Positions 1 to 11,220 of a stretch of DNA of 36,799 nucleotides are shown here, piece after piece. Source of the stretch: Thiotrichaceae bacterium (GTDB taxonomy: Bacteria; Pseudomonadota; Gammaproteobacteria; Beggiatoales; Beggiatoaceae); assembly GCA_026991885.1 (NCBI GenBank), contig JALXAQ010000233.1, positions 1 through 36,799 on the forward strand, given 5' to 3'. The translations under genes and the position numbers were made by a program. The notes under the pieces are model-generated. The model was not told where the DNA came from. It saw only the letters and a list, made by a program, of their open reading frames with translations, and did no database searches. The number at the start of each line of letters is the position of its first letter. The first letter of the stretch is position 1.

Positions 1-1
1 T

Positions 2-262
2 CAAATTGATTTATTGATACGTTATGCGGGGCAATTGTTTGGTTTAGAGTTAAAGAGTTTTGCAAATCAACGAGAATATCGTAAAGCCCTCATTCAAGCG
101 GCAAAGTATGGAAAACACTTAGGCGTGTTGGAAATCTGGTTAGTGTTATTTATTGAAGCCGTTGATGACAAAAATCGTCAACGCTTTGAAGCCGATTACA
201 CTGATAGTCAAACGGGTGTTATTGTGCATCCGGTTTTTGTGCAGACGGGAAAAGACAATTAA
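2..262 (+). CDS. 3' fragment of a gene running off the left window edge; C-terminal domain possibly PD-(D/E)XK-like (ELK motif)
   Basis: The reading frame is open from position 2. A TTG/ATG-less stretch is called at 14. The ExK motif in FGLELKSF and the overall layout resemble the C-terminal nuclease-like domain of AAA-ATPase/PDDEXK_9 proteins. This is a weak by-eye call. Stop at 260-262. Confidence 0.35.
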   Translation, partial: QIDLLIRYAGQLFGLELKSFANQREYRKALIQAAKYGKHLGVLEIWLVLFIEAVDDKNRQRFEADYTDSQTGVIVHPVFVQTGKDN

Positions 263-347: not shown

Positions 348-378
348 GGTGATAAAAAATTGGTGCGTGGGACGCACC
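348..378 (-). terminator. Rho-independent terminator downstream of the radical SAM gene
   Basis: Perfect 7-bp stem GGTGCGT-GGG-ACGCACC at 362-378. On the minus strand it is followed by AATTTTTTAT. Confidence 0.5.
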
Positions 379-1239
379 CTACGTTTTATGGTATGAAAGG
401 AGCCGACTCCGCTGATCCTCCAGCGACGCATACACTGTCCCGTCCGACAGCAGGTTGCTTGATCGACATAGCCGATTTTCCAGTTCCCAAAGTGGGGTCG
501 GTTCGTGGTAATAACAGACTTGTAGTCCTCCTATTCGACGAATTTCTGGCCCCCAAGGTAGCTTAGCGACCACTTCTCCTTGCCCCACAAAAGGATCGTA
601 TTCAATCTGATGTGTCTGAGCCCAATGATTTTGGTCGGATTGCTTAAAAACCGATTTTTCATAAGTCACATAAGTGTGTTTAAATGTAAATTCTTCAACG
701 CCATAAGCTTGCAAGGTGCGAATGTATTGCCAAACCTTTTCCGTGTTATCAATGTATTCTTTGCACATGACACAAATAGCGCGGACTTTCAGGGGGGCTG
801 TCTTTTTAAAAAACTGTTCAAGGCTAATGACTTTTTGACCCATTAAGGCGCGACAAGCTTCATCATCCTGATGGTGTCTGGAATAGCAAAGATAAGAAAC
901 GCCCGCTTCTGCTAAAGCTTGCGCTAATTCAGGAGTCAAAAAACTGCCATTGGTAAAGCAAGTGATTTCATTAAAATAGTCGCGTCCCTGCCGGACAAGG
1001 TAGAGTACTTCTTGAGGGCGCAGCAAAGGTTCACCGCCTCCAGTAATCACTAGCCGTTTTGCTCCTCGTTCACGGGCAAATTCATAATAGCGGCGGATGT
1101 CCACTTTTTGCCAACTCTCGTGATGTCGTGTACTGATAGATGATTTTGAGAAACAAAACAAGCAGTTAAGATTGCAGGCCATGCGAACGGGTAGTACGCT
1201 GCAAGTTAAAAAGCGGCATTCATGCCATGATTCAGTCAT
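379..1239 (-). CDS. Radical SAM enzyme; the CxxxCxΦC motif CNLNCLFCF is viperin-like
   Basis: CNLNCLFCFSK cluster (CX3CX2C). ITGGGEPLL glycine-rich SAM motif. FTNGS element. Start is placed at the second Met (MTESW), giving an 8-nt overlap with the upstream gene. The first Met at 1266 lies inside a palindromic repeat. Last gene of the minus-strand operon. Confidence 0.8.
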   Translation of the reverse strand: MTESWHECRFLTCSVLPVRMACNLNCLFCFSKSSISTRHHESWQKVDIRRYYEFARERGAKRLVITGGGEPLLRPQEVLYLVRQGRDYFNEITCFTNGSFLTPELAQALAEAGVSYLCYSRHHQDDEACRALMGQKVISLEQFFKKTAPLKVRAICVMCKEYIDNTEKVWQYIRTLQAYGVEEFTFKHTYVTYEKSVFKQSDQNHWAQTHQIEYDPFVGQGEVVAKLPWGPEIRRIGGLQVCYYHEPTPLWELENRLCRSSNLLSDGTVYASLEDQRSRLLSYHKT

Positions 1240-1945
1240 GTTTAAATCCTTTTCTATGGAGTCCAAGATTTATCTTGGATTCCTGAAATGCCTCACAAAT
1301 CACGGCACGTCGCTCTGGTGCAATATGATGCCAGGCGGTACACAAATCACTTTCTGTTAAGCCAAGTTGTTGCATAGTGTCACGAGCGCGTAGCCGAATC
1401 TCGCGTTGAGAGGATTGTAAGGCACGGCGTAGCGGTAAGCCCTGCTTTTCGCTGTCTTGTAATGTTTGATTGAGTGTGTTTAAGCGTTCTAAGGTATCTG
1501 TCAAAATATCATCATACGCCCTGCCACCGAGCACTTCGCGCCATTGGTGGTGATTGATAATATCACGAGTCAATTGTTCGGCATCATGCAGCGGCAAAGT
1601 CCCGGGCACAAATGCAATGGTTTCGACATCGGGTAGACGCGAAGCCAATGCGACATAAATATCCGATACGCCTGAATACCAAGGCTGTAATTGTAAGGGT
1701 TGCAGAAAAACCAGTCGCCCAATGTGCTCATAATCGGTGTACGGCTCTTGATAGGCGGCGGTTCGCATATAGGTAATCGGTGTCACCGGACCAGCAAGCC
1801 TTTTTAATCCTTTTTCCAAAAAAGTGCTCATTGCCACAGGACCAATGTCCCGAAAGAGAACGGGCAAGGTTTCGTCAGGATTTAATGGACGCAAGGGGGC
1901 GCCGGTATGCCAACTATATTGTTTTAAATTGTCACTCACTGTCAT
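1232..1945 (-). CDS. Hypothetical protein (237 aa); its C-terminal residues are encoded by a palindromic repeat
   Basis: Long ORF in operon register. No recognisable motifs. The last residues ESKINLGL are the translation of the 26-bp palindrome, so the true C-terminus is uncertain. Confidence 0.5.
   Translation of the reverse strand: MTVSDNLKQYSWHTGAPLRPLNPDETLPVLFRDIGPVAMSTFLEKGLKRLAGPVTPITYMRTAAYQEPYTDYEHIGRLVFLQPLQLQPWYSGVSDIYVALASRLPDVETIAFVPGTLPLHDAEQLTRDIINHHQWREVLGGRAYDDILTDTLERLNTLNQTLQDSEKQGLPLRRALQSSQREIRLRARDTMQQLGLTESDLCTAWHHIAPERRAVICEAFQESKINLGLHRKGFKHD
1258..1283. repeat. 26-bp palindromic element, copy A (GGAGTCCAAGATTTATCTTGGATTCC)
   Basis: Perfect inverted repeat apart from one mismatch. 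It lies in the junction between two genes. Confidence 0.8.
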
Positions 1946-1954
1946 AATTGCTTT

Positions 1955-1976
1955 TCCAAACTAAAGTTTGGACTCC
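1955..1976. repeat. Variant palindromic element (TCCAAACTAAAGTTTGGACTCC)
   Basis: Same GGACTCC arm with a different palindromic core. Intergenic. Confidence 0.5.
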
Positions 1977-1979
1977 TAT

Positions 1980-2582
1980 TTAGAATTTTCCACGTCTACC
2001 TAATCTTCTTTCCTGTTCTTCCCGAAGTTGGCGTAGATAATCCATGCGCTCTTCTGCCGACGCTTTCGCTTGTTCCGCTTGATTGAGCAGGCGACGGTAA
2101 TCCAATCGCCTTAGGCGTTGTTGCGACTCTGCCTTGGTTTCACCCTCAATCTCTGCGCCTAAGCAAGCTAAAAATTGTCGTGCAAATTCTTCAACACGGA
2201 GCGGACTTTGGCGGAGTAATTCCATCGTTAAAAGATTCGTCTCCATTGCGAAACTAAAAAAACAGTGCTTAAGTTGTTTTACTCGGTCCGTTTTTACGCC
2301 TAATGCCTTTTTAAGTTCATCATGATCAAGTCCTGCCACTGCAAGTGCTAAACGCTGCCGCCCTTCTTCATTCAGTTGTTCAACTAAAATCTGGAAATCC
2401 TGGGGCGCGATAAAATTGAGTTCCATATCACGATAATGATCGGCTAGCCGTGCATGGACTAATTGCATATCCACTTTTTGTTGTCCCTTTTCTATGATAT
2501 ATTTTTGATAATATCCTTCTAGTAAGCGTAATCTGACGGTAACAGTTGGGAGACTGTTAAAAAATTTTTGACGGATGTTCAT
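1980..2582 (-). CDS. Hypothetical protein (200 aa) with a charged coiled-coil C-terminal half
   Basis: ORF in operon. The E/R/Q-rich C-terminus suggests a coiled coil. No catalytic motifs seen. Confidence 0.5.
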   Translation of the reverse strand: MNIRQKFFNSLPTVTVRLRLLEGYYQKYIIEKGQQKVDMQLVHARLADHYRDMELNFIAPQDFQILVEQLNEEGRQRLALAVAGLDHDELKKALGVKTDRVKQLKHCFFSFAMETNLLTMELLRQSPLRVEEFARQFLACLGAEIEGETKAESQQRLRRLDYRRLLNQAEQAKASAEERMDYLRQLREEQERRLGRRGKF

Positions 2583-4206
2583 GCCTATTCTCTGAAAAAA
2601 GTGCGTGTGCCAATTTTGCTGCTAATTTTGGAAAATCTTCCATTTCTTCAATGCGAATGACGGTTGCTCCTGCTGCTTGATAGCGGGCATCGTTAAGTTC
2701 TCTCAAAGCATGTAGTAATAGGATAAGTTGTTGAGAGGATTGGATCGCTTCTCCCAAAATGCCGGCTGCTTGTTCGTGTTCATCATAATTATAATCAAAG
2801 TCGCTATCGCTGATGATAACGCGAATGGGTTGCGCGTCGCTAGAGTCTATCACTGAACTTTGTAGTTTTTCAAATGGAAATTGGGTGCCTGAGCCGATGT
2901 AGTGCATCAAAAAGCGCGACAATTCAATCTCGGAGCGGCACCATTGCCAATAGGCGACATGATCACTTGAATATAATAAAGCCCGTGCGCGTCCCCCGGC
3001 ACGAATAGCACCCATGACGAGTATTTGTGAAGCTAAGGTCATGGCATTGCGAGTATAGCGCGGATCGGGCATGGAGCCACTGACATCTAAATAAATTTCA
3101 ACTTTGGGTTGCCAGAGGGGGATGTCGTAGCCTTCAACTTCGGCTATTCTGTTGCGCTTTAAGGGTAGGGCGGCACCCAGTTGGTCTCCTCGATAGAGTA
3201 GTGTTGTTAACCAGTCTATATCTTGTACTGCATCTTGGGGTTCCCAGTCATCAATGGTGGTGGGGACGACGGCTTCTCCGAGTGTGCGCTGTGGCGGGGG
3301 GTGAATTAAATAACGCTCTGCTTGTTGGCGATAATAGGCGGCCATGATTTCTGGCACTTGATCGGCAGCCCCCTGTTGAAGTCCGGGCAGTCCCATGATA
3401 CGACGTTCAAGGGTATTTTGGCCATCCAGAGATTTTGCCTCTTTTTCATCGAGCCAGCCTTCTGCAAGGGCTCGGCGGATAGCTTCTTTTTCACGCGCAC
3501 TGGGGGTTAAGGCATCGGCCCAATCTTCTGGACTGGGCTCGTCTGCCGCGCATTGGTAGGGGTTGATATTTTTTGGGTGTTCAGGTGGCTTGATGTAGCG
3601 GCAGACGACGGAGATAAAGTAAAGAAATTGGGTATAAATGTTGGGGCCGAGATTGAAGAGATTTTGGGATAATAATTGTGCATCGGCGCGGTAGCTTGGA
3701 TATGCCTTTTCAAAGTCGGCGGCTCCCATCAGTGCGCCCTGTTCGGTTTGCCAAAGTTCTTCGTAAACGGCTAAATAAAAGAGAAAGGCGGGATCGTTGA
3801 GTGAGTTGTCATCAAAGGCTTGATAGATGCGAATGAGTTGGTCGCGTTGCGTATGCCCGATATGTTCGTTGATCATGATATCGGTAAATAGGTTAATCAG
3901 CGAATATTCTTCAATTGGGATCAGGGATTTTTCTAACAGGCGCAGACGGGCTTGGACAGCAAGCGTTCCCGGATAGCGTACATGATGCCCTATTTCGTGC
4001 GCCAGCAGGGCTTCGATACAGTCTTCTAGTCCTTTTTCTTTGATGGTTTTGTGGTTGAGCGTGATTTGTCTGTTGCCTAAGTGAATTTGGGCGATACTGT
4101 GTTGGTGTGAATCGTCTTTGGGTGTACTTAATAAGAGAAATTGTGACCAGTGGGCTTGTGCCTTTGGCCAGGTTTTGTTGATGATTTGATTGAGGCTTGT
4201 ACTCAT
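2557..4206 (-). CDS. Fused HExxH zinc-metallopeptidase-like N-domain plus von Willebrand A (MIDAS) C-domain protein; partner of the MoxR-like ATPase (DUF2201-like)
   Basis: LLAHEIGHHVRY (HExxH) near the N-terminus. IYLDVSGSM (DxSxS MIDAS) in the C-terminal half. 549 aa. Sits two genes downstream of the AAA+ ATPase. Confidence 0.8.
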   Translation of the reverse strand: MSTSLNQIINKTWPKAQAHWSQFLLLSTPKDDSHQHSIAQIHLGNRQITLNHKTIKEKGLEDCIEALLAHEIGHHVRYPGTLAVQARLRLLEKSLIPIEEYSLINLFTDIMINEHIGHTQRDQLIRIYQAFDDNSLNDPAFLFYLAVYEELWQTEQGALMGAADFEKAYPSYRADAQLLSQNLFNLGPNIYTQFLYFISVVCRYIKPPEHPKNINPYQCAADEPSPEDWADALTPSAREKEAIRRALAEGWLDEKEAKSLDGQNTLERRIMGLPGLQQGAADQVPEIMAAYYRQQAERYLIHPPPQRTLGEAVVPTTIDDWEPQDAVQDIDWLTTLLYRGDQLGAALPLKRNRIAEVEGYDIPLWQPKVEIYLDVSGSMPDPRYTRNAMTLASQILVMGAIRAGGRARALLYSSDHVAYWQWCRSEIELSRFLMHYIGSGTQFPFEKLQSSVIDSSDAQPIRVIISDSDFDYNYDEHEQAAGILGEAIQSSQQLILLLHALRELNDARYQAAGATVIRIEEMEDFPKLAAKLAHALFSENRHEHPSKIF

Positions 4207-4231
4207 TGCTTGTTCTCATTGATTGTCATTT

Positions 4232-5134
4232 TTAACCCGCAACCACTTGCCAAATCCGTTGTGAATCCACCGCAGTCACCAAGAGTTGCCCACAGAATAA
4301 ATATGAATAATGCTCACCAAGCCGTGTCAATTCTACCTTATTTGATTGAATTGTAACACTTGAGTCTTTAAATGTCAGATTTATATGACTTTCCTCGGTT
4401 TGGGTGTGTCCCAAGCATTTGTTATGATATAGCAAAGTCTTTGGCGCATTATTCATAAAAATACCCCCATAAACGCCATCCAGTCGGCGATCATGGACGC
4501 AAACCACGGAGGGGGCAACTTGGTGCATGTCTCCGGGGAGAAAGTTGTCGTGAATGTCGCGCCCGTCCAAAATGGAAACGCGATAGGGGGGGCGGGCTTT
4601 TTCCGGCGGACGTAGCAGCGGTGCGATAATCTCAATGAGAAAATTTTCGATTTTTGTCAAAGCCGGTAGTTCTTCGGCACGGGAGAGAATATAGAGCCCC
4701 ATCCAAGGGGTTTCTTGTCGTATATTTTCGCCCAAATTCCATATTTTTGTTATCAATTCTAATTGCTGTGCAGCGGGCACTTGAGATAAAGTCAGTGGAA
4801 TTTCTTTCAATAGACAATATTCAAGAAAGCTATTCCAAGTAATATTCAATGCTTGATGAGTGGCTTTTTTATTTTTAATCAAGTAGTTATATTGCCATTC
4901 TGGAATAGATTGTGTGATGTAAGCACTACCGATGCCTTCGCGGATCAAGTCCATGTAGCCAGCAAAGACTTTTTCTTTATTGTGTTGGTTGCGAATGTTG
5001 TGCCAGCAGAGTCGTGCCGCTCCTTTGCAAATTTCCAAGAAAAGTTCGTTATTCCAGTGGGCATATTGTTTTTGGCCGAGCGAATGGATGCGGTTGATTT
5101 CTTGGGTAAAATGTTGTGGTGTTTTGTTTGTCAT
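4232..5134 (-). CDS. Hypothetical protein (300 aa) in the MoxR-vWA operon
   Basis: ORF between the ATPase and the vWA gene with tight spacing. No recognisable motif. Confidence 0.5.
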   Translation of the reverse strand: MTNKTPQHFTQEINRIHSLGQKQYAHWNNELFLEICKGAARLCWHNIRNQHNKEKVFAGYMDLIREGIGSAYITQSIPEWQYNYLIKNKKATHQALNITWNSFLEYCLLKEIPLTLSQVPAAQQLELITKIWNLGENIRQETPWMGLYILSRAEELPALTKIENFLIEIIAPLLRPPEKARPPYRVSILDGRDIHDNFLPGDMHQVAPSVVCVHDRRLDGVYGGIFMNNAPKTLLYHNKCLGHTQTEESHINLTFKDSSVTIQSNKVELTRLGEHYSYLFCGQLLVTAVDSQRIWQVVAG

Positions 5135-5159
5135 TTTTTTTCAGTGCAGGCGCGTCGAG

Positions 5160-6671
5160 TTATGATCGGTTCAGTTTATGACGACATTGAACATAAAGGT
5201 GCTTTAATAAAACCAGGTCATTATGGACGGGGGCATTTAATTCATGTTTTGTCACCAAATTTTCCATTTCTTGTTGTAGCATCTGCAAACCTTGTTTGAG
5301 TTCTTGCTGTGGCAGTCCATCAATGCTTGTCTGAAGTTCTATGATAGGTTGTCGCAAGGCTTGATAAGCAACATGTTGTTTCAAGCTATGATCAAATAAT
5401 TGGCGTATCCAAGATACTTTGTCGGTTTGATAAACTTGATTTTCCGTTTTTTGAAAAAAGTCGCTTTGTGGATTGGGCTTGAGTTTTTCGTGTAATACCC
5501 AGGGCAAAATTTGACGGATGTCTTCATTTGAAACGGTGGTTTTTCCCCGAAAAAAGGCCAGTGCTTTGGCATAATGGATAATCGTTTGATAGGCGCGAGC
5601 GGATGCGCCGGATTCTGTTTGGGTGCAAATATTTTCAAATTTGTCCAGTGGACAATCTTCGGTGCAAACGTGTCCTACTCGGCGTCCGGCTAAATGAAGC
5701 GTATCTTTGTTTTGAAATTCCAGCGTATCCGATGCCCGTCGGCAAAAGTCGAGTTGCGAAATCAGAAATCCTAGAATTTCTAGTACTTCTGATGGCATTT
5801 CGATGGCGCGAATTTTTGTGCCGATTTGGTCTAATTCTTCAGGCGTAAAAATGATGTCAGTGGGCATGGGTTGCTCTGCGTTGTTTGCAATGCGCTTTGC
5901 TAATGCCGTCAGATAGCGGGTATTGAAAGGCGTACAGCGCACGACGATGTCGATACGATCTTTTAGGGCTTCAATGACTTGAAATGTGCCACCGCCTAAG
6001 TCATCATTTGCTGTCAAAAACCAGGCTGAATTTTGGCAGTGAATGATTTGTTCATACATTTCGGCATAGCCTTCTGCCATCAGGGACAGTAGACAGGATT
6101 GCGTTTTTGTTGGGATTCTGTTGTATTCGTCAATGATTTTGACGCGCATACTGATCCATTTGCGCCAGAGTACTCGGATATCGGCACTGTGACGCGCTTG
6201 AACTAAGTCGCTCGGCAAGGGGCTGCCCAATATATCGGCTTGCGTCATTTGTGGATGCCCGTGCTGAATGGCGTGTTTGATTTCGTCTAAGCTGTAGCCG
6301 GCAAGTAGTGCCATTAGGGTGGCAACGGTGGTTTTTCCCCGCCCGGGTGCTCCGATGAGTAAGAGGCGACGCGATGTCATCAAAGTCAGCAATGGCAAGA
6401 GGATAAAAGAGGCATAACTGTCTTCTGATGTTAAATTGATTTGTTGCTCGGAACGCCCCAAGGTGATGCGATGACCGTATTCTATGTCATTGTAGGGAGA
6501 ATAGATCGCGTTGTCTAGTATCCATTGATAGGCGAGCCGGCATTTTTCGGTGAGGTTGCCCGCTTTGGGGGATTTAAAGCTAATAGCTCCCGTGTCATCC
6601 AGTTGCGCTCTGCCTTTTAACCAGGATTGTACGAGTGTCTTAGCATCTGTTTGATGTGTGATGTTGTGCAT
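5160..6671 (-). CDS. MoxR-like AAA+ ATPase (AAA_5 type) with N- and C-terminal extensions
   Basis: Walker A LLLIGAPGRGKTTVA. Walker B/sensor region IIDEYNRIPTKTQSCLLSLMAEG, comparable to the MoxR LxDEINRAxPxxQSALLEAM. 503 aa. First gene of the operon. Confidence 0.8.
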   Translation of the reverse strand: MHNITHQTDAKTLVQSWLKGRAQLDDTGAISFKSPKAGNLTEKCRLAYQWILDNAIYSPYNDIEYGHRITLGRSEQQINLTSEDSYASFILLPLLTLMTSRRLLLIGAPGRGKTTVATLMALLAGYSLDEIKHAIQHGHPQMTQADILGSPLPSDLVQARHSADIRVLWRKWISMRVKIIDEYNRIPTKTQSCLLSLMAEGYAEMYEQIIHCQNSAWFLTANDDLGGGTFQVIEALKDRIDIVVRCTPFNTRYLTALAKRIANNAEQPMPTDIIFTPEELDQIGTKIRAIEMPSEVLEILGFLISQLDFCRRASDTLEFQNKDTLHLAGRRVGHVCTEDCPLDKFENICTQTESGASARAYQTIIHYAKALAFFRGKTTVSNEDIRQILPWVLHEKLKPNPQSDFFQKTENQVYQTDKVSWIRQLFDHSLKQHVAYQALRQPIIELQTSIDGLPQQELKQGLQMLQQEMENLVTKHELNAPVHNDLVLLKHLYVQCRHKLNRS

Positions 6672-6832: not shown

Positions 6833-6905
6833 CGTTAGATAGCTCATCAGGTAGAGCAACTGACTCATAATCAGTGTGTAGCAGGTTCGATTCCTGCTCT
6901 AACTC
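6833..6905 (+). tRNA. tRNA with anticodon CAU (Met or Ile2 type), 73 nt, no encoded CCA; acceptor stem AT-rich with a C1-U72 mismatch
   Basis: Folded by hand. Acceptor CGTTAGA/TCTAACT. D-arm GCTC-ATCAGGTA-GAGC. Anticodon arm ACTGA-CTCATAA-TCAGT (U33, CAT, A37). Variable loop GTGTA. T-arm GCAGG-TTCGATT-CCTGC. Discriminator C. Confidence 0.55.
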
Positions 6906-6908
6906 ATA

Positions 6909-6935
6909 TGACTTGCCAAGTCACTATTTTAACAC
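6909..6935 (+). terminator. Hairpin plus T-tract after the tRNA
   Basis: TGACTTGCCAAGTCA followed by CTATTTT. Confidence 0.35.
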
Positions 6936-7176
6936 AAGAACCGTGACCGTCTTCGGTGGGCATCAGTGATGCTCACAGCATGTTCAGGGCTTTGTGTGAT
7001 AATGGGTACGGCAAGCTTGGTTTTTTCTCTCCGTGTTGTCCCTAAACCCAAGCCAGATAGATTTTACGTTTTGGGGGCGGGCTGACGGGCGGATTAAATC
7101 CAGCTTGTCGCAAATTGTCACCCGCATTGTGCATGTGGGGGCGGTCATTTAATAAATGGAACAGGAGGCTAAAATC

Positions 7177-8307
7177 ATGTTGATATTCAGTCAATTTATT
7201 GTTCACAAAAATGAACGGGGATTGTTATTTAAAGAGGGTGACTTTTTGGATTTTTTGGCACCAGGCACTTATCGCTATTTTGATCCCTTGCATAAAATTC
7301 AAGTAGAACGCTATGATTTGTCTGTTCCAGAGTTTGAACATCGCTTGGTCGATTTTTTTATTAAAGAATATGCCGATGCTGTTGCGCGTTATTTTACAAT
7401 TATTGAATTGGGTGCCCAACAAGTCGCCTTACTCTATAAAAATGGACGATTAACGAATATTTTACCGCCTTCTAGCCGCCAATTGTATTGGAATGGGATT
7501 GTGGAGGTTAAGACAGAAATTATTGATATTTCAGACAAATTTGAAATTTCGCGTGTTCAAGCCGCGCCGCTTGTGTATGCACCTGTACAAGGTGTGAATG
7601 AAGCTATTTATAGTCAAGAAGTGCCAGAATATCAGATTGGTTTGTTGTATGTTGATGGACAATGTATTAAAACCTTGCAACCCGGTTTACACGCTTATTG
7701 GCAATTTAATCGTCATATCAATATTGTTATGTGGGATACCCGCCTACAAGATATAGAAGTTTCTGGACAAGAAATTCTGACCAAAGATAAAGTGAGTTTG
7801 CGTGTGAATCTATCTGCGACTTATTCTATTAAAAATGTGCAGCGTGCAACCTCTACTTTAACTAATCCCGTTAATTATTTGTATAAAGAATTGCAATTTG
7901 GGCTACGCGCTGCGGTGGGTACTCGTACTTTAGATGAATTGTTAGGTAATAAAAATGTGATTGATGAGATCGTGTTTGCCTATATCCGCGATAAGATGGC
8001 GGAATTGGGTATTGAAGTGCAAAGCGTGGGCGTAAAAGACATCATTTTGCCGGGTGAGATGAAAACGATTTTGGCTAAAGTGGTTGAAGCGGAAAAGGTA
8101 GCACAAGCGAATTTAATCAAACGCCGTGAGGAGACGGCTGCGACTCGCTCCTTGCTGAATACGGCTAAAGTGATGGAAGATAATCCGACCGCTTTACGGT
8201 TGAAAGAGCTTGAGGTACTTGAGAAGGTGACGGAGAAAATTGGTAAACTATCTGTGTATGGCGGCTTGGAAGGTTTATTGAAGGAATTGGTTAAAATTAA
8301 GACTTAA
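7177..8307 (+). CDS. SPFH/Band-7 (stomatin/prohibitin/flotillin-like) domain protein
   Basis: NERGLLFKEG opening typical of SPFH proteins. Long C-terminal coiled coil (KVVEAEKVAQANLIKRREETAA). AGGAGG RBS 9 nt upstream of the ATG at 7177. Confidence 0.75.
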   Translation: MLIFSQFIVHKNERGLLFKEGDFLDFLAPGTYRYFDPLHKIQVERYDLSVPEFEHRLVDFFIKEYADAVARYFTIIELGAQQVALLYKNGRLTNILPPSSRQLYWNGIVEVKTEIIDISDKFEISRVQAAPLVYAPVQGVNEAIYSQEVPEYQIGLLYVDGQCIKTLQPGLHAYWQFNRHINIVMWDTRLQDIEVSGQEILTKDKVSLRVNLSATYSIKNVQRATSTLTNPVNYLYKELQFGLRAAVGTRTLDELLGNKNVIDEIVFAYIRDKMAELGIEVQSVGVKDIILPGEMKTILAKVVEAEKVAQANLIKRREETAATRSLLNTAKVMEDNPTALRLKELEVLEKVTEKIGKLSVYGGLEGLLKELVKIKT

Positions 8308-9285
<978 letters not shown>

Positions 9286-9287
9286 TT

Positions 9288-9328
9288 TGAACGACAGGGA
9301 TTAATTATTAGCAGGGATAAGTCAAAAC
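9288..9328 (+). repeat. Copy 2 of the roughly 40-bp intergenic repeat
   Basis: TTGAACGACAGGGATTAATTATTAGCAGGGATAAGTCAAAAC directly after the trxB stop. Confidence 0.7.
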
Positions 9329-9344
9329 ATTATATTTTCGTTGT

Positions 9345-9400
9345 TTCGGGAATGGAGCTGATTTCCCGAAACAAAACTTCAAAAAAGTCGTTTTTTTTCC
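9345..9400 (+). terminator. Rho-independent terminator of trxB
   Basis: 12-bp stem TTGTTTCGGGAA...TTCCCGAAACAA followed by an A/T run ending in TTTTTTTT. Confidence 0.6.
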
Positions 9401-9447
9401 GGTAGAAGTTGTACTTATCGCAAACTGATAGGTGGTAATAACTTAAT

Positions 9448-9951
9448 ATGAGCAAAAAAAATTTTGATGCTTTTCTCAAAAAACATGAATCAAAAAAGAA
9501 AGAAGAAAATAATTGGGATGAAATAAAAAGAGAATGGCTTGATAAGGTAAGAGAATTCTATTCTCTTGTACATAAATGGTTAAAGGAGTATGAAAAACAA
9601 GGCCAAGCCAAACTAAAATTTTTGCCGTACTGGCTAAATGAGGAATATATTGGCAGTTACGAAACTCAAAAATTACACCTTAAAATAGCTAACCAAGAGA
9701 TCGTATTTCTCCCTATTGGTACACGATTATTTGGAGCAAAAGGTCGAATTGATATGGAGGGCATAGCCGGTAAGGTCAAGTTTTTATTGGTTGATAAAAA
9801 TGCCACAAGAGCAGGCGTTAAAGTCAAACTTTATGATGGAAAAAACCTTGATTGGGTTTGGAAAATAGCAACCCCTCCGCCTACAATTCAATTAATTGAA
9901 TTGAATGAGGAAAGTTTTTTTGATGCAGTAATGGAAGTGATAAATGGGTAA
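9448..9951 (+). CDS. Hypothetical Lys-rich protein (167 aa), first gene of an AT-rich two-gene module
   Basis: AT-rich codon usage distinct from its neighbours. RBS AGGTGG upstream. The stop overlaps the next gene's start (ATGGGTAA). Confidence 0.6.
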   Translation: MSKKNFDAFLKKHESKKKEENNWDEIKREWLDKVREFYSLVHKWLKEYEKQGQAKLKFLPYWLNEEYIGSYETQKLHLKIANQEIVFLPIGTRLFGAKGRIDMEGIAGKVKFLLVDKNATRAGVKVKLYDGKNLDWVWKIATPPPTIQLIELNEESFFDAVMEVING

Positions 9952-10483
9952 GCGAGTAAACTTTTCTGACTCAAATCTGGAGCTACATGAAATTACTCAG
10001 CATCATACTGAGACAGAAAATGCCTTGAAGGAATATTATGGTGTTGACGGTAAAAGAGAGTTTCTACCCGTTAAGTTCATTGGCTATTCGGCAGAAGAGG
10101 TATTTATCGAGTTTCGTTCCAGAATTGAAGAATTAGAAAAAACGTCATCATTGACTTTGTTGTCATCGCTTGAAGCCAAACTAAGAATTGATTATCTAAA
10201 ACGCTGTTATCAAAAAGGAAAAGATGGTTTATCAAAGGATTTTAGAGCAATACACAAGCAAAAATATCATCGAGCCTCTTTAGAAGAAGATATTCTTGAA
10301 ACTTGGAAAAAACATTACCCTGAAAAAAAATGGCTAATATCTGAGTTGCTTGGGGCTTTAAAGTATAGGCATTGGCTTGCTCACGGTCGTTATTGGGAAC
10401 CAAAATTAGGCAGAAAATACGATTACTCATACATTTATTCTTTAATAGAGCAAGCCTATAAAAACTTACCATTGAAGAGTTAA
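9944..10483 (+). CDS. Hypothetical protein with a C-terminal HEPN-like Rx4H motif (YRHWLAHGRYW); candidate RNase, toxin or Abi effector
   Basis: R-x4-H in LKYRHWLAHG near the C-terminus of a 179-aa alpha-helical-looking protein. Translationally coupled to the upstream gene. Confidence 0.5.
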   Translation: MGKRVNFSDSNLELHEITQHHTETENALKEYYGVDGKREFLPVKFIGYSAEEVFIEFRSRIEELEKTSSLTLLSSLEAKLRIDYLKRCYQKGKDGLSKDFRAIHKQKYHRASLEEDILETWKKHYPEKKWLISELLGALKYRHWLAHGRYWEPKLGRKYDYSYIYSLIEQAYKNLPLKS

Positions 10484-10497
10484 TCGCATAACAATAC

Positions 10498-10530
10498 CAG
10501 CTTTAAGTTAACGACAGCCAATTTTGATTT
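10498..10530 (+). repeat. Degenerate copy of the roughly 40-bp intergenic repeat
   Basis: AGTTAACGACAGCC... after the stop at 10483. Only the AACGACAG core is conserved. Confidence 0.35.
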
Positions 10531-10602
10531 GACATATCCTAATAAATGTCCAATACTGTATTTGAATGTATCCAGCTTTGTTTTTAATTGAGACTATAAG
10601 TT

Positions 10603-11220
10603 ATGAAAAAAAAATTTGCTTCATTCCTCATCACAGGGAAAGCGGCTACGCTCCCCTTTTTTATGAATAACAGCGTGGCTGATACCAACCTTGCAGATAT
10701 GTTATTCGATAGCAGCCAACCACAGCTAATGGAACGAGCGGGGCAAGGCATTGCGGTGACAGGTGACACGGTGCAAATCGTATCCCCTGGTCCTGGCTGT
10801 TCGTTCCCTCAGCCCACTGACATCATGAATGTCGTTGTCACGGGCGTGCGTAACGGTGATTTTGTTTTCATCGCTTCTGCTGATAACAAAGACGATCCAA
10901 ATTTTATCGCTGTCAATCCCGCTTTTAGAATTGGTCAACAAAACTTGCGTATTTTGACCAGCTTTTATGTCGATAGATTGGAATTGTCGCCACTATCCGG
11001 TTTCGAGCATGGAGGCGGCGATTTGGGCAACGCAGTGTCTGCCATTTCGGTGCCTGTGGATTTGAATCAAATATCAAGCACTGGTTTATTTTATATGCAA
11101 GCTTTGATTCTGCGTCCTAATCCGCTTACAGCAGAATTGCCAGCTACTATGGTTTTTTCAGAATTGGATGAAATTAAGCAAGTGACAGCGACTTGTGACT
11201 CTTATGGTATACATTACTAA
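10603..11220 (+). CDS. Secreted hypothetical protein (signal peptide)
   Basis: MKKKFASFLITGKAATLPFFMNNSVA-DT signal-peptide-like N-terminus. Followed by a terminator hairpin. Confidence 0.6.
   Translation: MKKKFASFLITGKAATLPFFMNNSVADTNLADMLFDSSQPQLMERAGQGIAVTGDTVQIVSPGPGCSFPQPTDIMNVVVTGVRNGDFVFIASADNKDDPNFIAVNPAFRIGQQNLRILTSFYVDRLELSPLSGFEHGGGDLGNAVSAISVPVDLNQISSTGLFYMQALILRPNPLTAELPATMVFSELDEIKQVTATCDSYGIHY

Follow-up and report, generated by a model that had tools for sequence, protein, structure and literature searches.

What is the role of a gene cassette that combines a MoxR-type AAA+ ATPase, a protein with both an HExxH motif and a metal-ion-dependent adhesion site (MIDAS), and a radical S-adenosylmethionine (SAM) enzyme, and does such a cassette belong to the housekeeping of the cell or to its conflicts? 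This question is raised by a stretch of 36,799 nucleotides (nt) from a metagenome contig of a Thiotrichaceae bacterium (GenBank assembly GCA_026991885.1, contig JALXAQ010000233.1, positions 1 to 36,799; hereafter the window), in which six co-directional genes, here called g1 to g6, occupy positions 379-6671 of the minus strand (Table 1). A first reading of this DNA without database searches (the sequence-only reading) had described these genes as an operon and as a candidate for an undescribed conflict or stress system. We found that the operon-like arrangement of the six open reading frames (ORFs) is borne out in coordinates, lengths and motifs, and that the canonical cassette consists of seven genes in two modules, A (g1-g4) and B (g5-g7). 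The seventh gene, the two-module structure, a sister family with another enzyme in place of module B, a conserved C-terminal tail of g4 and a gene context related to nicotinamide adenine dinucleotide (NAD) and ADP-ribose are all additions to that first reading. The cassette is accessory and horizontally spread, not housekeeping. We tentatively propose that it is an accessory system related to stress or conflict in which ATP hydrolysis and a protease gate a nucleotide-linked radical SAM output, an explanation that we favour at somewhat less than an even chance.

Order, modularity and spread of the cassette

The window genes have the same order in Singulisphaera sp. GP187, in Pyxidicoccus sp. 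MSG2 and in a large number of metagenome contigs, where a gene for an AAA+ ATPase is followed by genes for proteins of ~285, ~560, ~207 and ~240 amino acids (aa) and for a radical SAM enzyme, with identities to the window proteins of 45-60% for g1 and g3-g6 and ~30% for g2. Because homologues in the same order occur in other phyla, we consider the six ORFs to be real genes. The junctions between them range from a 35-nt overlap to a 34-nt gap. Moreover, all six are under purifying selection: the ratio of non-synonymous to synonymous substitution rates (dN/dS) stays below 1 in comparison with two related contigs, at 0.08-0.23 against L024 and 0.13-0.63 against L022 (loci outside the window carry our L numbers), g2 and g4 being the fastest evolving by this measure. 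The cassette is found in Myxococcota, Planctomycetota, Thioploca-like bacteria and many metagenomes. The nearest relatives of the window genes come from Thioploca-like organisms, including a g5 homologue of 79% identity that is labelled Thioploca sp.

Outside the window, the seventh gene, g7, regularly follows g6. Among 56 g7 loci from metagenomes, 53 have g6 immediately upstream; in two of the remaining three the contig ends before g6, and the third (L074) has a g1 fragment in this place. All seven genes are present in conserved order in Singulisphaera, Pyxidicoccus and 12 metagenome loci with enough flank. Elsewhere the modules are rearranged, separated or eroded: L006 has a permuted order with g4-g7 before g1-g3, L023 (2-3880) carries g1 and g2 inverted directly beside g6-g7 and lacks g3-g5, and in L033, L037, L056 and L057 the g6-g7 pair stands without g1-g5 nearby. 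Three loci (L003, 8779-12239; L004; L005), like L023 from Thioploca-like contigs, have lost g1 and most of g2 and contain unrelated small ORFs in their place, and the cassette of L019 looks degraded.

The cassette keeps a high identity between distant phyla, occurs sporadically and shows local decay, a combination that marks it as accessory and horizontally acquired. A housekeeping cluster in conserved synteny, which would have spoken against the sequence-only reading, is not what we observed, as the cassette is scattered over the phyla, with different neighbours even in relatives of 93-96% DNA identity. Specifically, in L022, which has this level of identity to the window, the flanking genes are quite unlike those of the window, with an ABC substrate-binding protein on one side and thioredoxin-DsbH, ArgJ and SecA on the other.

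The window itself holds no g7. The homology to L022 and to all other copies ends at ~401-407, at the end of g6, where g7 would follow, and beyond g6 lie the terminator and then an unrelated ORF that is cut by the window edge. Either the window copy is incomplete, or g7 is located behind an insertion or in another part of the genome. That this copy is an incomplete or decaying remnant, maybe non-functional as a system, would fit the position of g7 in the other loci, the close relative L022 included, the end of the homology at the g6 stop codon, and the insertions (HNH, small ORFs), g1 loss and rearrangement in related Thioploca-like contigs. Decay of this kind is harder to reconcile with six intact window genes, with a dN/dS of 0.08-0.63 and with a proper terminator directly after g6; in addition, the window extends only 378 nt past g6, ending inside another gene, so that g7 could be located past an insertion or elsewhere. 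We consider a remnant doubtful, and this judgement is independent of the alternatives on function that are weighed below.

Table 1. Genes of the cassette and adjoining features in the window.
Feature	Position	Strand	Length	Motifs and remarks
g1, MoxR-type AAA+ ATPase	5160-6671	-	503 aa	GAPGRGKT, IIDEYNR
g2, helical + partial β-propeller protein	4232-5134	-	300 aa	
g3, HExxH/MIDAS protein	2557-4206	-	549 aa	
g4, helical protein with conserved C-terminus	1980-2582	-	200 aa	
g5, α/β + helical protein	1232-1945	-	237 aa	
g6, radical SAM enzyme	379-1266	-	295 aa	CNLNCLFC; likely true start = ATG at 1239
Intrinsic terminator	352..378 (hairpin 378..362)	-		GGTGCGTCCCACGCACC then T run, directly 3' of g6 stop codon
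tRNA-Met(CAU)	6833-6905	opposite to cassette		confirmed

The flanks of the cassette give no support to an island. The clean terminator after g6 and the flanking tRNA-Met(CAU) of the sequence-only reading are both confirmed, and the proposed island at this tRNA is not: the end of the tRNA is not directly repeated, att-like repeats were not found, GC content and composition show no anomaly, and for the supposed repeat elements we found only short two-copy matches at chance expectation. Likewise, the flanking ORF that had been likened to PD-(D/E)XK nucleases has no match in Pfam or NCBIfam and a frame that is open to the window edge. This frame (1-262, plus strand) ends at 262 and represents the C-terminal part of a gene that the end of the contig interrupts, so that it need not be a gene fragment. 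On the tRNA side the flank of the window consists of housekeeping genes (SPFH, TrxB, GNAT, glycosyltransferases, BamD and glycogen phosphorylase). We observed here a 250-nt intergenic stretch between the tRNA-Met gene and the SPFH gene (6906-7155) without an Rfam match, and three ORFs of 167, 179 and 205 aa between trxB and the GNAT acetyltransferase gene (9448-11220, plus strand), none of which has a Pfam match. In L022, two insertions were observed within the cassette: one between g2 and g3 (4088-4938) contains a 141-aa ORF and an HNH endonuclease, and another of ~1.07 kb (8222-9294) contains two small ORFs and lies between the two copies of a duplicated 253-bp segment from the 5' end of g6 (7969-8221 and 9295-9547).

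Module A and its sister family

The assignment of g1 to the MoxR-type AAA+ ATPases is upheld by Pfam, in which AAA_3 (34.6 bits, cut-off 27), AAA_5 (33.8 bits, cut-off 22) and AAA_lid_2 (50.8 bits, cut-off 22.7) are all above their cut-offs, so that g1 contains the AAA core with Walker A and B and the lid, surrounded by N- and C-terminal extensions of ~95 aa each. In a profile search of PDB sequences its best solved relative is the MoxR structure 2r44 (E 2e-9), with midasin next. The protein is 55-58% identical to the Singulisphaera, Pyxidicoccus and Planctomycetaceae copies and has a dN/dS of 0.08-0.13. The MIDAS protein g3 is encoded one gene downstream, and this linkage holds at all loci that have both genes, also in the sister family described below.

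The combination of an HExxH and a MIDAS motif in g3, as the sequence-only reading had claimed, is well preserved, since both motifs are invariant in 22 homologues and kept in the sister family. Specifically, the zincin-like N-domain contains an invariant HE[IV]GHHVRYP, the MIDAS of the vWA-like C-domain (vWA, von Willebrand factor A) is complete (D374-x-S376-G-S378, T441 and D467/D469), and the invariant residues E92, D109, E149 and E150 are candidate third zinc ligands. The check for vWA and DUF2201 models that had been suggested for g3 was negative: VWA, VWA_2, VWA_CoxE and DUF2201 do not match any of the 22 members at E ≤1, and no vWA, DUF2201 or peptidase model reaches its threshold. Weak sub-threshold matches are seen to Peptidase_M48 in 8 of the 22 and to DUF2201_N in 2 of them. 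A profile search of PDB sequences returned no solved relative, and at least 573 homologous clusters are nearly all named 'hypothetical', the single UniRef label 'DUF58 domain-containing' included in a set without any informative name.

The two remaining proteins of module A, together with g5, are the three ORFs that the sequence-only reading could not assign, and indeed g2, g3, g4 and g5 have no above-threshold match in scans of Pfam, NCBIfam and PADLOC. The most divergent component is g2 (185 representatives at 23-37% identity), whose AlphaFold2 model (mean predicted local distance difference test score, pLDDT, 94.5) combines an N-domain of helical repeats (residues 1-175) with a β-domain of ~115 residues at the C-terminus, the latter similar to part of a β-propeller. 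The protein g4 is helical, with a conserved core R.EE[FL]AR..L..LG....GE[ST]......RL and a charged coiled C-terminal region; a profile search of PDB sequences gave nothing meaningful. In the alignment its N-terminus is variable and its C-terminal part conserved, and the protein ends in GKW or GKF in 21 of 25 copies (RRGKW or RRGKF in 17), the others ending in GKH, GKV, SKW or SKI. Its dN/dS is 0.23-0.60.

When genome contigs were scanned with the g3 alignment, in which the DVSGSMPD pattern is generic, at least 11 loci were recovered, and through them a sister family came to light. At least ten loci belong to this family (L007-L016; examples are L011:501-8347 and L010:3694-11743). They represent at least six phyla, their sources being Verrucomicrobia, Anaerolineae, Planctomycetaceae, Ozemobacter, Bacteroidota, Actinomycetota and an unclassified proteobacterial metagenome-assembled genome. 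In these loci a PaaK-like adenylating ligase replaces g5-g7: among the matches listed, an AAA+ ATPase, a vWA protein and a PaaK-like/DVU_1553-like adenylating ligase are present in all ten, a middle gene (d2) is detectable in six, and a g4-like gene (d4) is found by tblastn in six and by eye in three more. The sister AAA+ ATPase is 39-47% identical to g1. The sister vWA protein has ~25% identity to g3 and keeps HE[IV]GHH and D.SGS. The protein d4 (~190 aa) is homologous to g4 (hhalign probability 95.9%, E 5e-9) and shares its core R.EE[FL]AR..LG....GE[ST]......RL, with the tail ..Y.RE-COOH instead of RRGK[WF]. Homology of d2 to g2 was rejected at the sequence level (hhalign probability 1.9%). 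No description of the sister cassette was found in the libraries and papers searched. Since they are kept in both families, the MoxR ATPase, the zincin/MIDAS protein and a g4-like helical protein are the invariant core of the superfamily, while the middle gene and the enzyme module are exchangeable and the g4 tail changes along with both.

Several sister loci carry additional genes. In L008 (11946-14933) the ligase is followed by another small radical SAM gene and another AMP-binding gene, which suggests further variation of the enzyme module, and L009 (5904-6926) contains an additional middle gene whose product has a nucleoside 2-deoxyribosyltransferase-like domain. After the sister cassette of L007 (5390-7777) we found a gene for a 795-aa fusion of isochorismatase, TCAD9 ('ternary complex associated domain 9'), an APH-like kinase and a DSP phosphatase. 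The deoxyribosyltransferase-like fold is listed among second-messenger-generating domains by Kaur et al. (2020; PMC7159879), and together with the name TCAD9 it hints at a tie to the conflict systems of these authors.

The exchange of the g4 tail raises the possibility that the tail itself is the substrate, in which case RRGK[WF]-COOH would be modified by the radical SAM module and the sister tail Y.RE-COOH by the adenylating ligase, and the zincin would release the tail as a toxin or signal. The tail changes with the enzyme module (RRGK[WF] with g5-g7, Y.RE with the PaaK-like ligase), it belongs to the conserved part of a protein with a variable N-terminus, and a zincin motif and a radical SAM enzyme are encoded in one operon. 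A precedent also exists in the 'peptide-processing systems' of zincin, small protein and radical SAM enzyme that accompany ternary systems of the MoxR-vWA kind (Kaur et al., 2020; PMC7159879, section 24). However, g4 is a protein of 200 aa with a conserved, folded helical core and not a short hypervariable precursor, g6 lacks the SPASM and RRE domains that are typical of peptide-modifying radical SAM enzymes and has nucleotide-sugar enzymes among its nearest named relatives, and the g6-g7 pair occurs without g4 nearby. Moreover, the tail also changes with the middle gene (g2 versus d2) and could thus be a docking motif. We regard modification of a protein tail or peptide as quite unlikely.

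Module B, its gene context and a possible mechanism

Among the proteins of module B, g6 is the one with a clear assignment. The claim of the sequence-only reading that the last gene encodes a radical SAM enzyme agrees with its match to Pfam Radical_SAM (PF04055; 61.7 bits, cut-off 29.5) and with its motifs CX3CX2C (CNLNCLFC), GGGEP and FTNG, accompanied by further conserved cysteines; it has no SPASM domain, and copies from different phyla are 59-62% identical. Of the named families, MoaA, viperin and BlsE are nearest, at 45-55 bits against cut-offs of 180-325. In a profile search of PDB sequences the matches are 8wm2 (top, undescribed), MoaA, Tes, BlsE and viperin-like structures, mainly over the N-terminal half to about residue 194. 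The solved relatives are mixed in chemistry: MoaA, BlsE and viperin abstract hydrogen from nucleotide-linked sugars, whereas the lipid synthase Tes and the peptide maturase SkfB do not. Two identities were rejected for g6. Viperin (NF038283) reaches 45.3 bits, the cut-off being 180, and matches residues 29-120 only, as does the PADLOC model pVip for residues 29-129, and MoaA scores 49.4 against 284 (TIGR02666) and 55 against 325 (TIGR02668), with only the N-terminal half matching. Because these scores are far below the cut-offs and the match is confined mainly to the half that binds the cluster and SAM, we conclude that g6 is neither viperin nor MoaA.

The canonical partner of g6, g7, is a protein of ~290-300 aa with 57-68% identity across phyla. 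Its profile places SFSRGFGLTASQLG on the motif SFSKTFAMTGWRLG, which contains the pyridoxal phosphate (PLP)-binding lysine of the archaeal aminotransferases 1DJU and 1GD9 (E 0.015), and a weak NCBIfam match to an aminotransferase is also seen (E 0.0018). Since the position of the Schiff-base Lys is Arg in all six sequences, g7 appears to be aminotransferase-like and not a canonical fold-type I PLP enzyme. For g5 (144 homologues), a model with a pLDDT of 94.1 has an α/β N-domain of ~130 residues followed by a long helical C-part, and the invariant residues include R32, D33, G35, Y59, R61, E67, R77 and C202-x-A-W-H-H207. A resemblance of g5 to ADP-ribosyltransferases (ARTs) is a lead and not a result: its model has no Foldseek match in PDB at E ≤0.001, and both a profile search of PDB sequences and hhalign comparisons with Tpt1 and DUF4291 were negative. 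Altogether g2, g4, g5 and g7 are four families without a family model in the libraries searched.

The gene context suggests a link of the cassette to NAD and ADP-ribose. Genes for PnuC, a nicotinamide riboside transporter, and NadR-like genes adjoin the sister cassette in five loci (L010, L011, L013, L015 and L016). In L033 (2185-10876) a standalone g6-g7 pair stands at the end of an operon with NrtR, an isochorismatase/nicotinamidase-like protein, Tpt1/KptA, an unknown 415-aa protein, NADAR, NUDIX, a Macro-like protein, DUF4291 and ADP-ribosylglycohydrolase, and this operon may be a better entry to the chemistry of g6-g7 than the window itself. The full cassette of L020 is located between a Macro gene and a DUF4291 gene, the latter 58% identical to that of L033; DUF4291 is a predicted atypical ART-like family with such neighbourhoods (PMC12522546). 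In addition, L037 has a CinA/PncC-domain gene ~1.2 kb upstream of g6-g7 and a glyoxalase-family gene directly beside g6, and L039 has an isochorismatase-family gene ~0.7 kb downstream on the opposite strand.

A few loci also have neighbours of the conflict type, namely AbiEi/AbiEii, SNF2 and Macro in L020, AHH/Imm11 in L002 and an SLFN/AlbA_2-type gene in L003. The conflict or stress role of the sequence-only reading gains circumstantial evidence from these AbiE, Macro, AHH/Imm11 and SLFN-like genes, and loses some from the ordinary genes that make up most neighbourhoods and from the lack of phage and plasmid copies in the collections searched. We consider a role in defence plausible.

An alternative without conflict is that the cassette makes a cofactor, a metal centre or a small molecule, with the MoxR-vWA pair as an insertion or maturation chaperone, comparable to NorQD, CoxDE, CbbQO or the chelatase subunits BchID/CobST, and with g6 and g7 building the molecule. 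Weak matches of the g1 core and lid to models of cobaltochelatase and Mg-chelatase subunits point in this direction, as do the proximity of g6 to MoaA, the aminotransferase-like character of g7, and a very high conservation across phyla, as would be expected with a fixed chemical substrate. The presence of PnuC and NadR, genes of NAD salvage, beside the sister family and the glyoxalase-family neighbours at two standalone g6-g7 loci could be read in the same way. Yet there is no conserved candidate client enzyme beside the cassette, whose neighbours differ at every locus, and the sporadic distribution, with decay and rearrangement in close relatives, is not what a biosynthetic pathway would suggest. 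The chelatase scores are far below the cut-offs and a large chelatase subunit is absent, and the Arg in place of the Schiff-base Lys in g7 makes ordinary PLP transamination unlikely. Biosynthesis of this kind is, in our judgement, rather improbable; if the cassette did serve maturation in this way, this would indicate an unknown cofactor.

For the gated radical SAM output that we favour, gene content, motifs, modularity, the exchangeable enzyme module, distribution, selection and gene contexts are observed, and from these we infer the physical interactions, the substrate and the biological role as follows. MoxR-vWA pairs such as RavA-ViaA, CbbQ-CbbO and NorQ-NorD are ATP-driven remodellers, and the MIDAS of Rea1 binds a Glu of its ligand. 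Module A would accordingly resemble an ATP-driven machine for remodelling and processing, in which the MoxR ring of g1 would engage g3, the MIDAS of g3 would clamp an acidic residue of a client, and the zincin domain would cut the bound client. The best candidate for this client or adaptor is g4, because it is the only other protein kept in both families, and it would probably be bound through the invariant Glu of GE[ST], the sole invariant acidic motif that it has in common with d4. The fast-evolving g2, with its helical domain and partial propeller, is a likely subunit for specificity or sensing. Module B (g5, g6 and, elsewhere, g7) would be the exchangeable enzymatic output, composed of a radical SAM enzyme of the type acting on nucleotide sugars, an aminotransferase-like partner with Lys replaced by Arg, and g5, and ATP hydrolysis and proteolysis would gate its assembly or activation.

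The substrate of this output is most likely derived from NAD+ or ADP-ribose, or is another nucleotide, a choice that we favour because several solved relatives of g6 act on nucleotide-linked sugars and because of the gene context; the family-specific C-terminal tail of g4 is kept as an alternative since it covaries with the enzyme module. By analogy with other multi-component MoxR-vWA systems, the role is most likely related to stress or conflict.

Several points weigh against this explanation. The zincin-vWA assignment of g3 is made from motifs and no HMM (hidden Markov model) is at threshold; the identity of g1, g3, g6 and g7 across phyla, at 55-70%, is unusually high for proteins in an arms race and fits enzymes with a fixed substrate; and at each locus the cassette has different neighbours, mostly ordinary genes. 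Furthermore, g3 was not found in plasmid or phage collections, nor g7 in viral contigs, and the NAD/ADP-ribose context within the window's own family amounts to only about four loci. PADLOC-DB v2 has no specific match for g1-g6, with generic hits to a P-loop model (IetA, ~15 bits) and a radical SAM model (pVip) and none for g2-g5. The missing g7, discussed above, belongs to these points as well.

If the output is indeed a new nucleotide- or NAD-derived molecule, the cassette would hold new radical SAM chemistry and maybe a new bacterial stress or immune system. A bolder proposal is that the cassette and its sister family form a new class of MoxR-vWA-gated systems, in which a platform of g1, g3 and a g4-like protein, controlled by ATP and protease, would switch on an exchangeable enzyme (radical SAM with pseudo-aminotransferase, or adenylating ligase) that makes an unknown product derived from NAD+/ADP-ribose or a nucleotide, or modifies protein C-termini in a new way, for the stress response or immunity of complex bacteria. 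We put this forward as an unlikely but consequential extension, in which four of the seven families (g2, g4, g5 and g7) would be new functional types.

Comparison with known systems

Of the bacterial ATPase systems with a poorly understood function, MoxR-vWA pairs are among the most widespread, and the cassette is a compact, highly conserved version of these pairs that offers catalytic handles (Walker A, HExxH, MIDAS and CX3CX2C), a likely client in g4 and an enzymatic read-out. The exchange of the output module in the sister family and the recurrent NAD-salvage and ADP-ribose neighbours lead to testable hypotheses on what such machines control. That the cassette is undescribed, as the sequence-only reading had supposed, is in line with the absence of a matching system in PADLOC and NCBIfam and of any paper describing it in the literature searched on MoxR and radical SAM, vWA-MoxR and DUF2201/COG3864.

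MoxR AAA+ ATPases are also paired with 'metallopeptidase-VWA' proteins of the DUF2201/COG3864 type (Pfam PF13203 and PF09967), a pairing for which no functional study was found in the literature searched. The domain logic is the same as in the cassette, an HExxH N-domain followed by a vWA-like C-domain beside a MoxR ATPase. However, no g3 homologue reaches the Pfam thresholds and the window g3 has no match, and the five extra genes are specific to the cassette.

Class I chelatases (BchI/BchD, CobS/CobT) and chaperone pairs (NorQ/NorD, CbbQ/CbbO, RavA/ViaA) likewise combine an AAA+ ring with a MIDAS-vWA partner, but these pairs have neither a zincin motif nor a radical SAM module, and no large substrate-binding subunit or client enzyme is linked to the cassette. 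Enzymes of the pVip and MoaA type resemble g6 in being small radical SAM proteins without SPASM and with CX3CX2C, GGE and xNG motifs; g6 differs from them by a C-terminal half with its own conserved cysteines and by its obligatory partnership with g7.

The nearest parallels are found in the 'ternary' MoxR-vWA conflict systems of Kaur, Burroughs, Iyer and Aravind (Kaur et al., 2020; eLife; PMC7159879). As in the cassette, a MoxR AAA+ ATPase and a vWA protein are joined there by a third component that varies, a large N-terminal domain stands before the vWA domain, the output modules are exchangeable, and the systems are enriched in Myxococcota, Planctomycetota and filamentous bacteria. In the simple FtsH type of these systems, a vWA protein with a helical N-domain is accompanied by a standalone radical SAM enzyme (PMC7159879), a feature that the cassette shares and that qualifies the statement of the sequence-only reading that radical SAM enzymes are unusual in MoxR-vWA cassettes. 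However, the double FtsH-type AAA+ protein of this type is absent from the cassette, in which g2, g4 and g5 have no AAA matches and the models of g2 and g5 are not P-loop folds. The β-propeller type has a helical/propeller third protein (PMC7159879) that is partly comparable to g2, with its helical and β-propeller-like parts, whereas g3 ends ~80 residues after the last MIDAS Asp, too soon for a propeller to follow the vWA domain. Further differences are that the cassette has no VMAP, iSTAND or EAD domains and no effector fused to the vWA protein's C-terminus, that g3 has an invariant HExxH in its N-domain and an intact rather than degenerate MIDAS, and that g4, g5 and g7 are not described by Kaur et al. 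The Singulisphaera locus was not found in the one supplementary file of theirs that was searched. In summary, among the systems described so far the ternary MoxR-vWA systems of Kaur et al. (2020) come closest, of which the shared ATPase, vWA protein and exchangeable outputs are recognizable here, and the cassette is an undescribed variant of MoxR-vWA systems.

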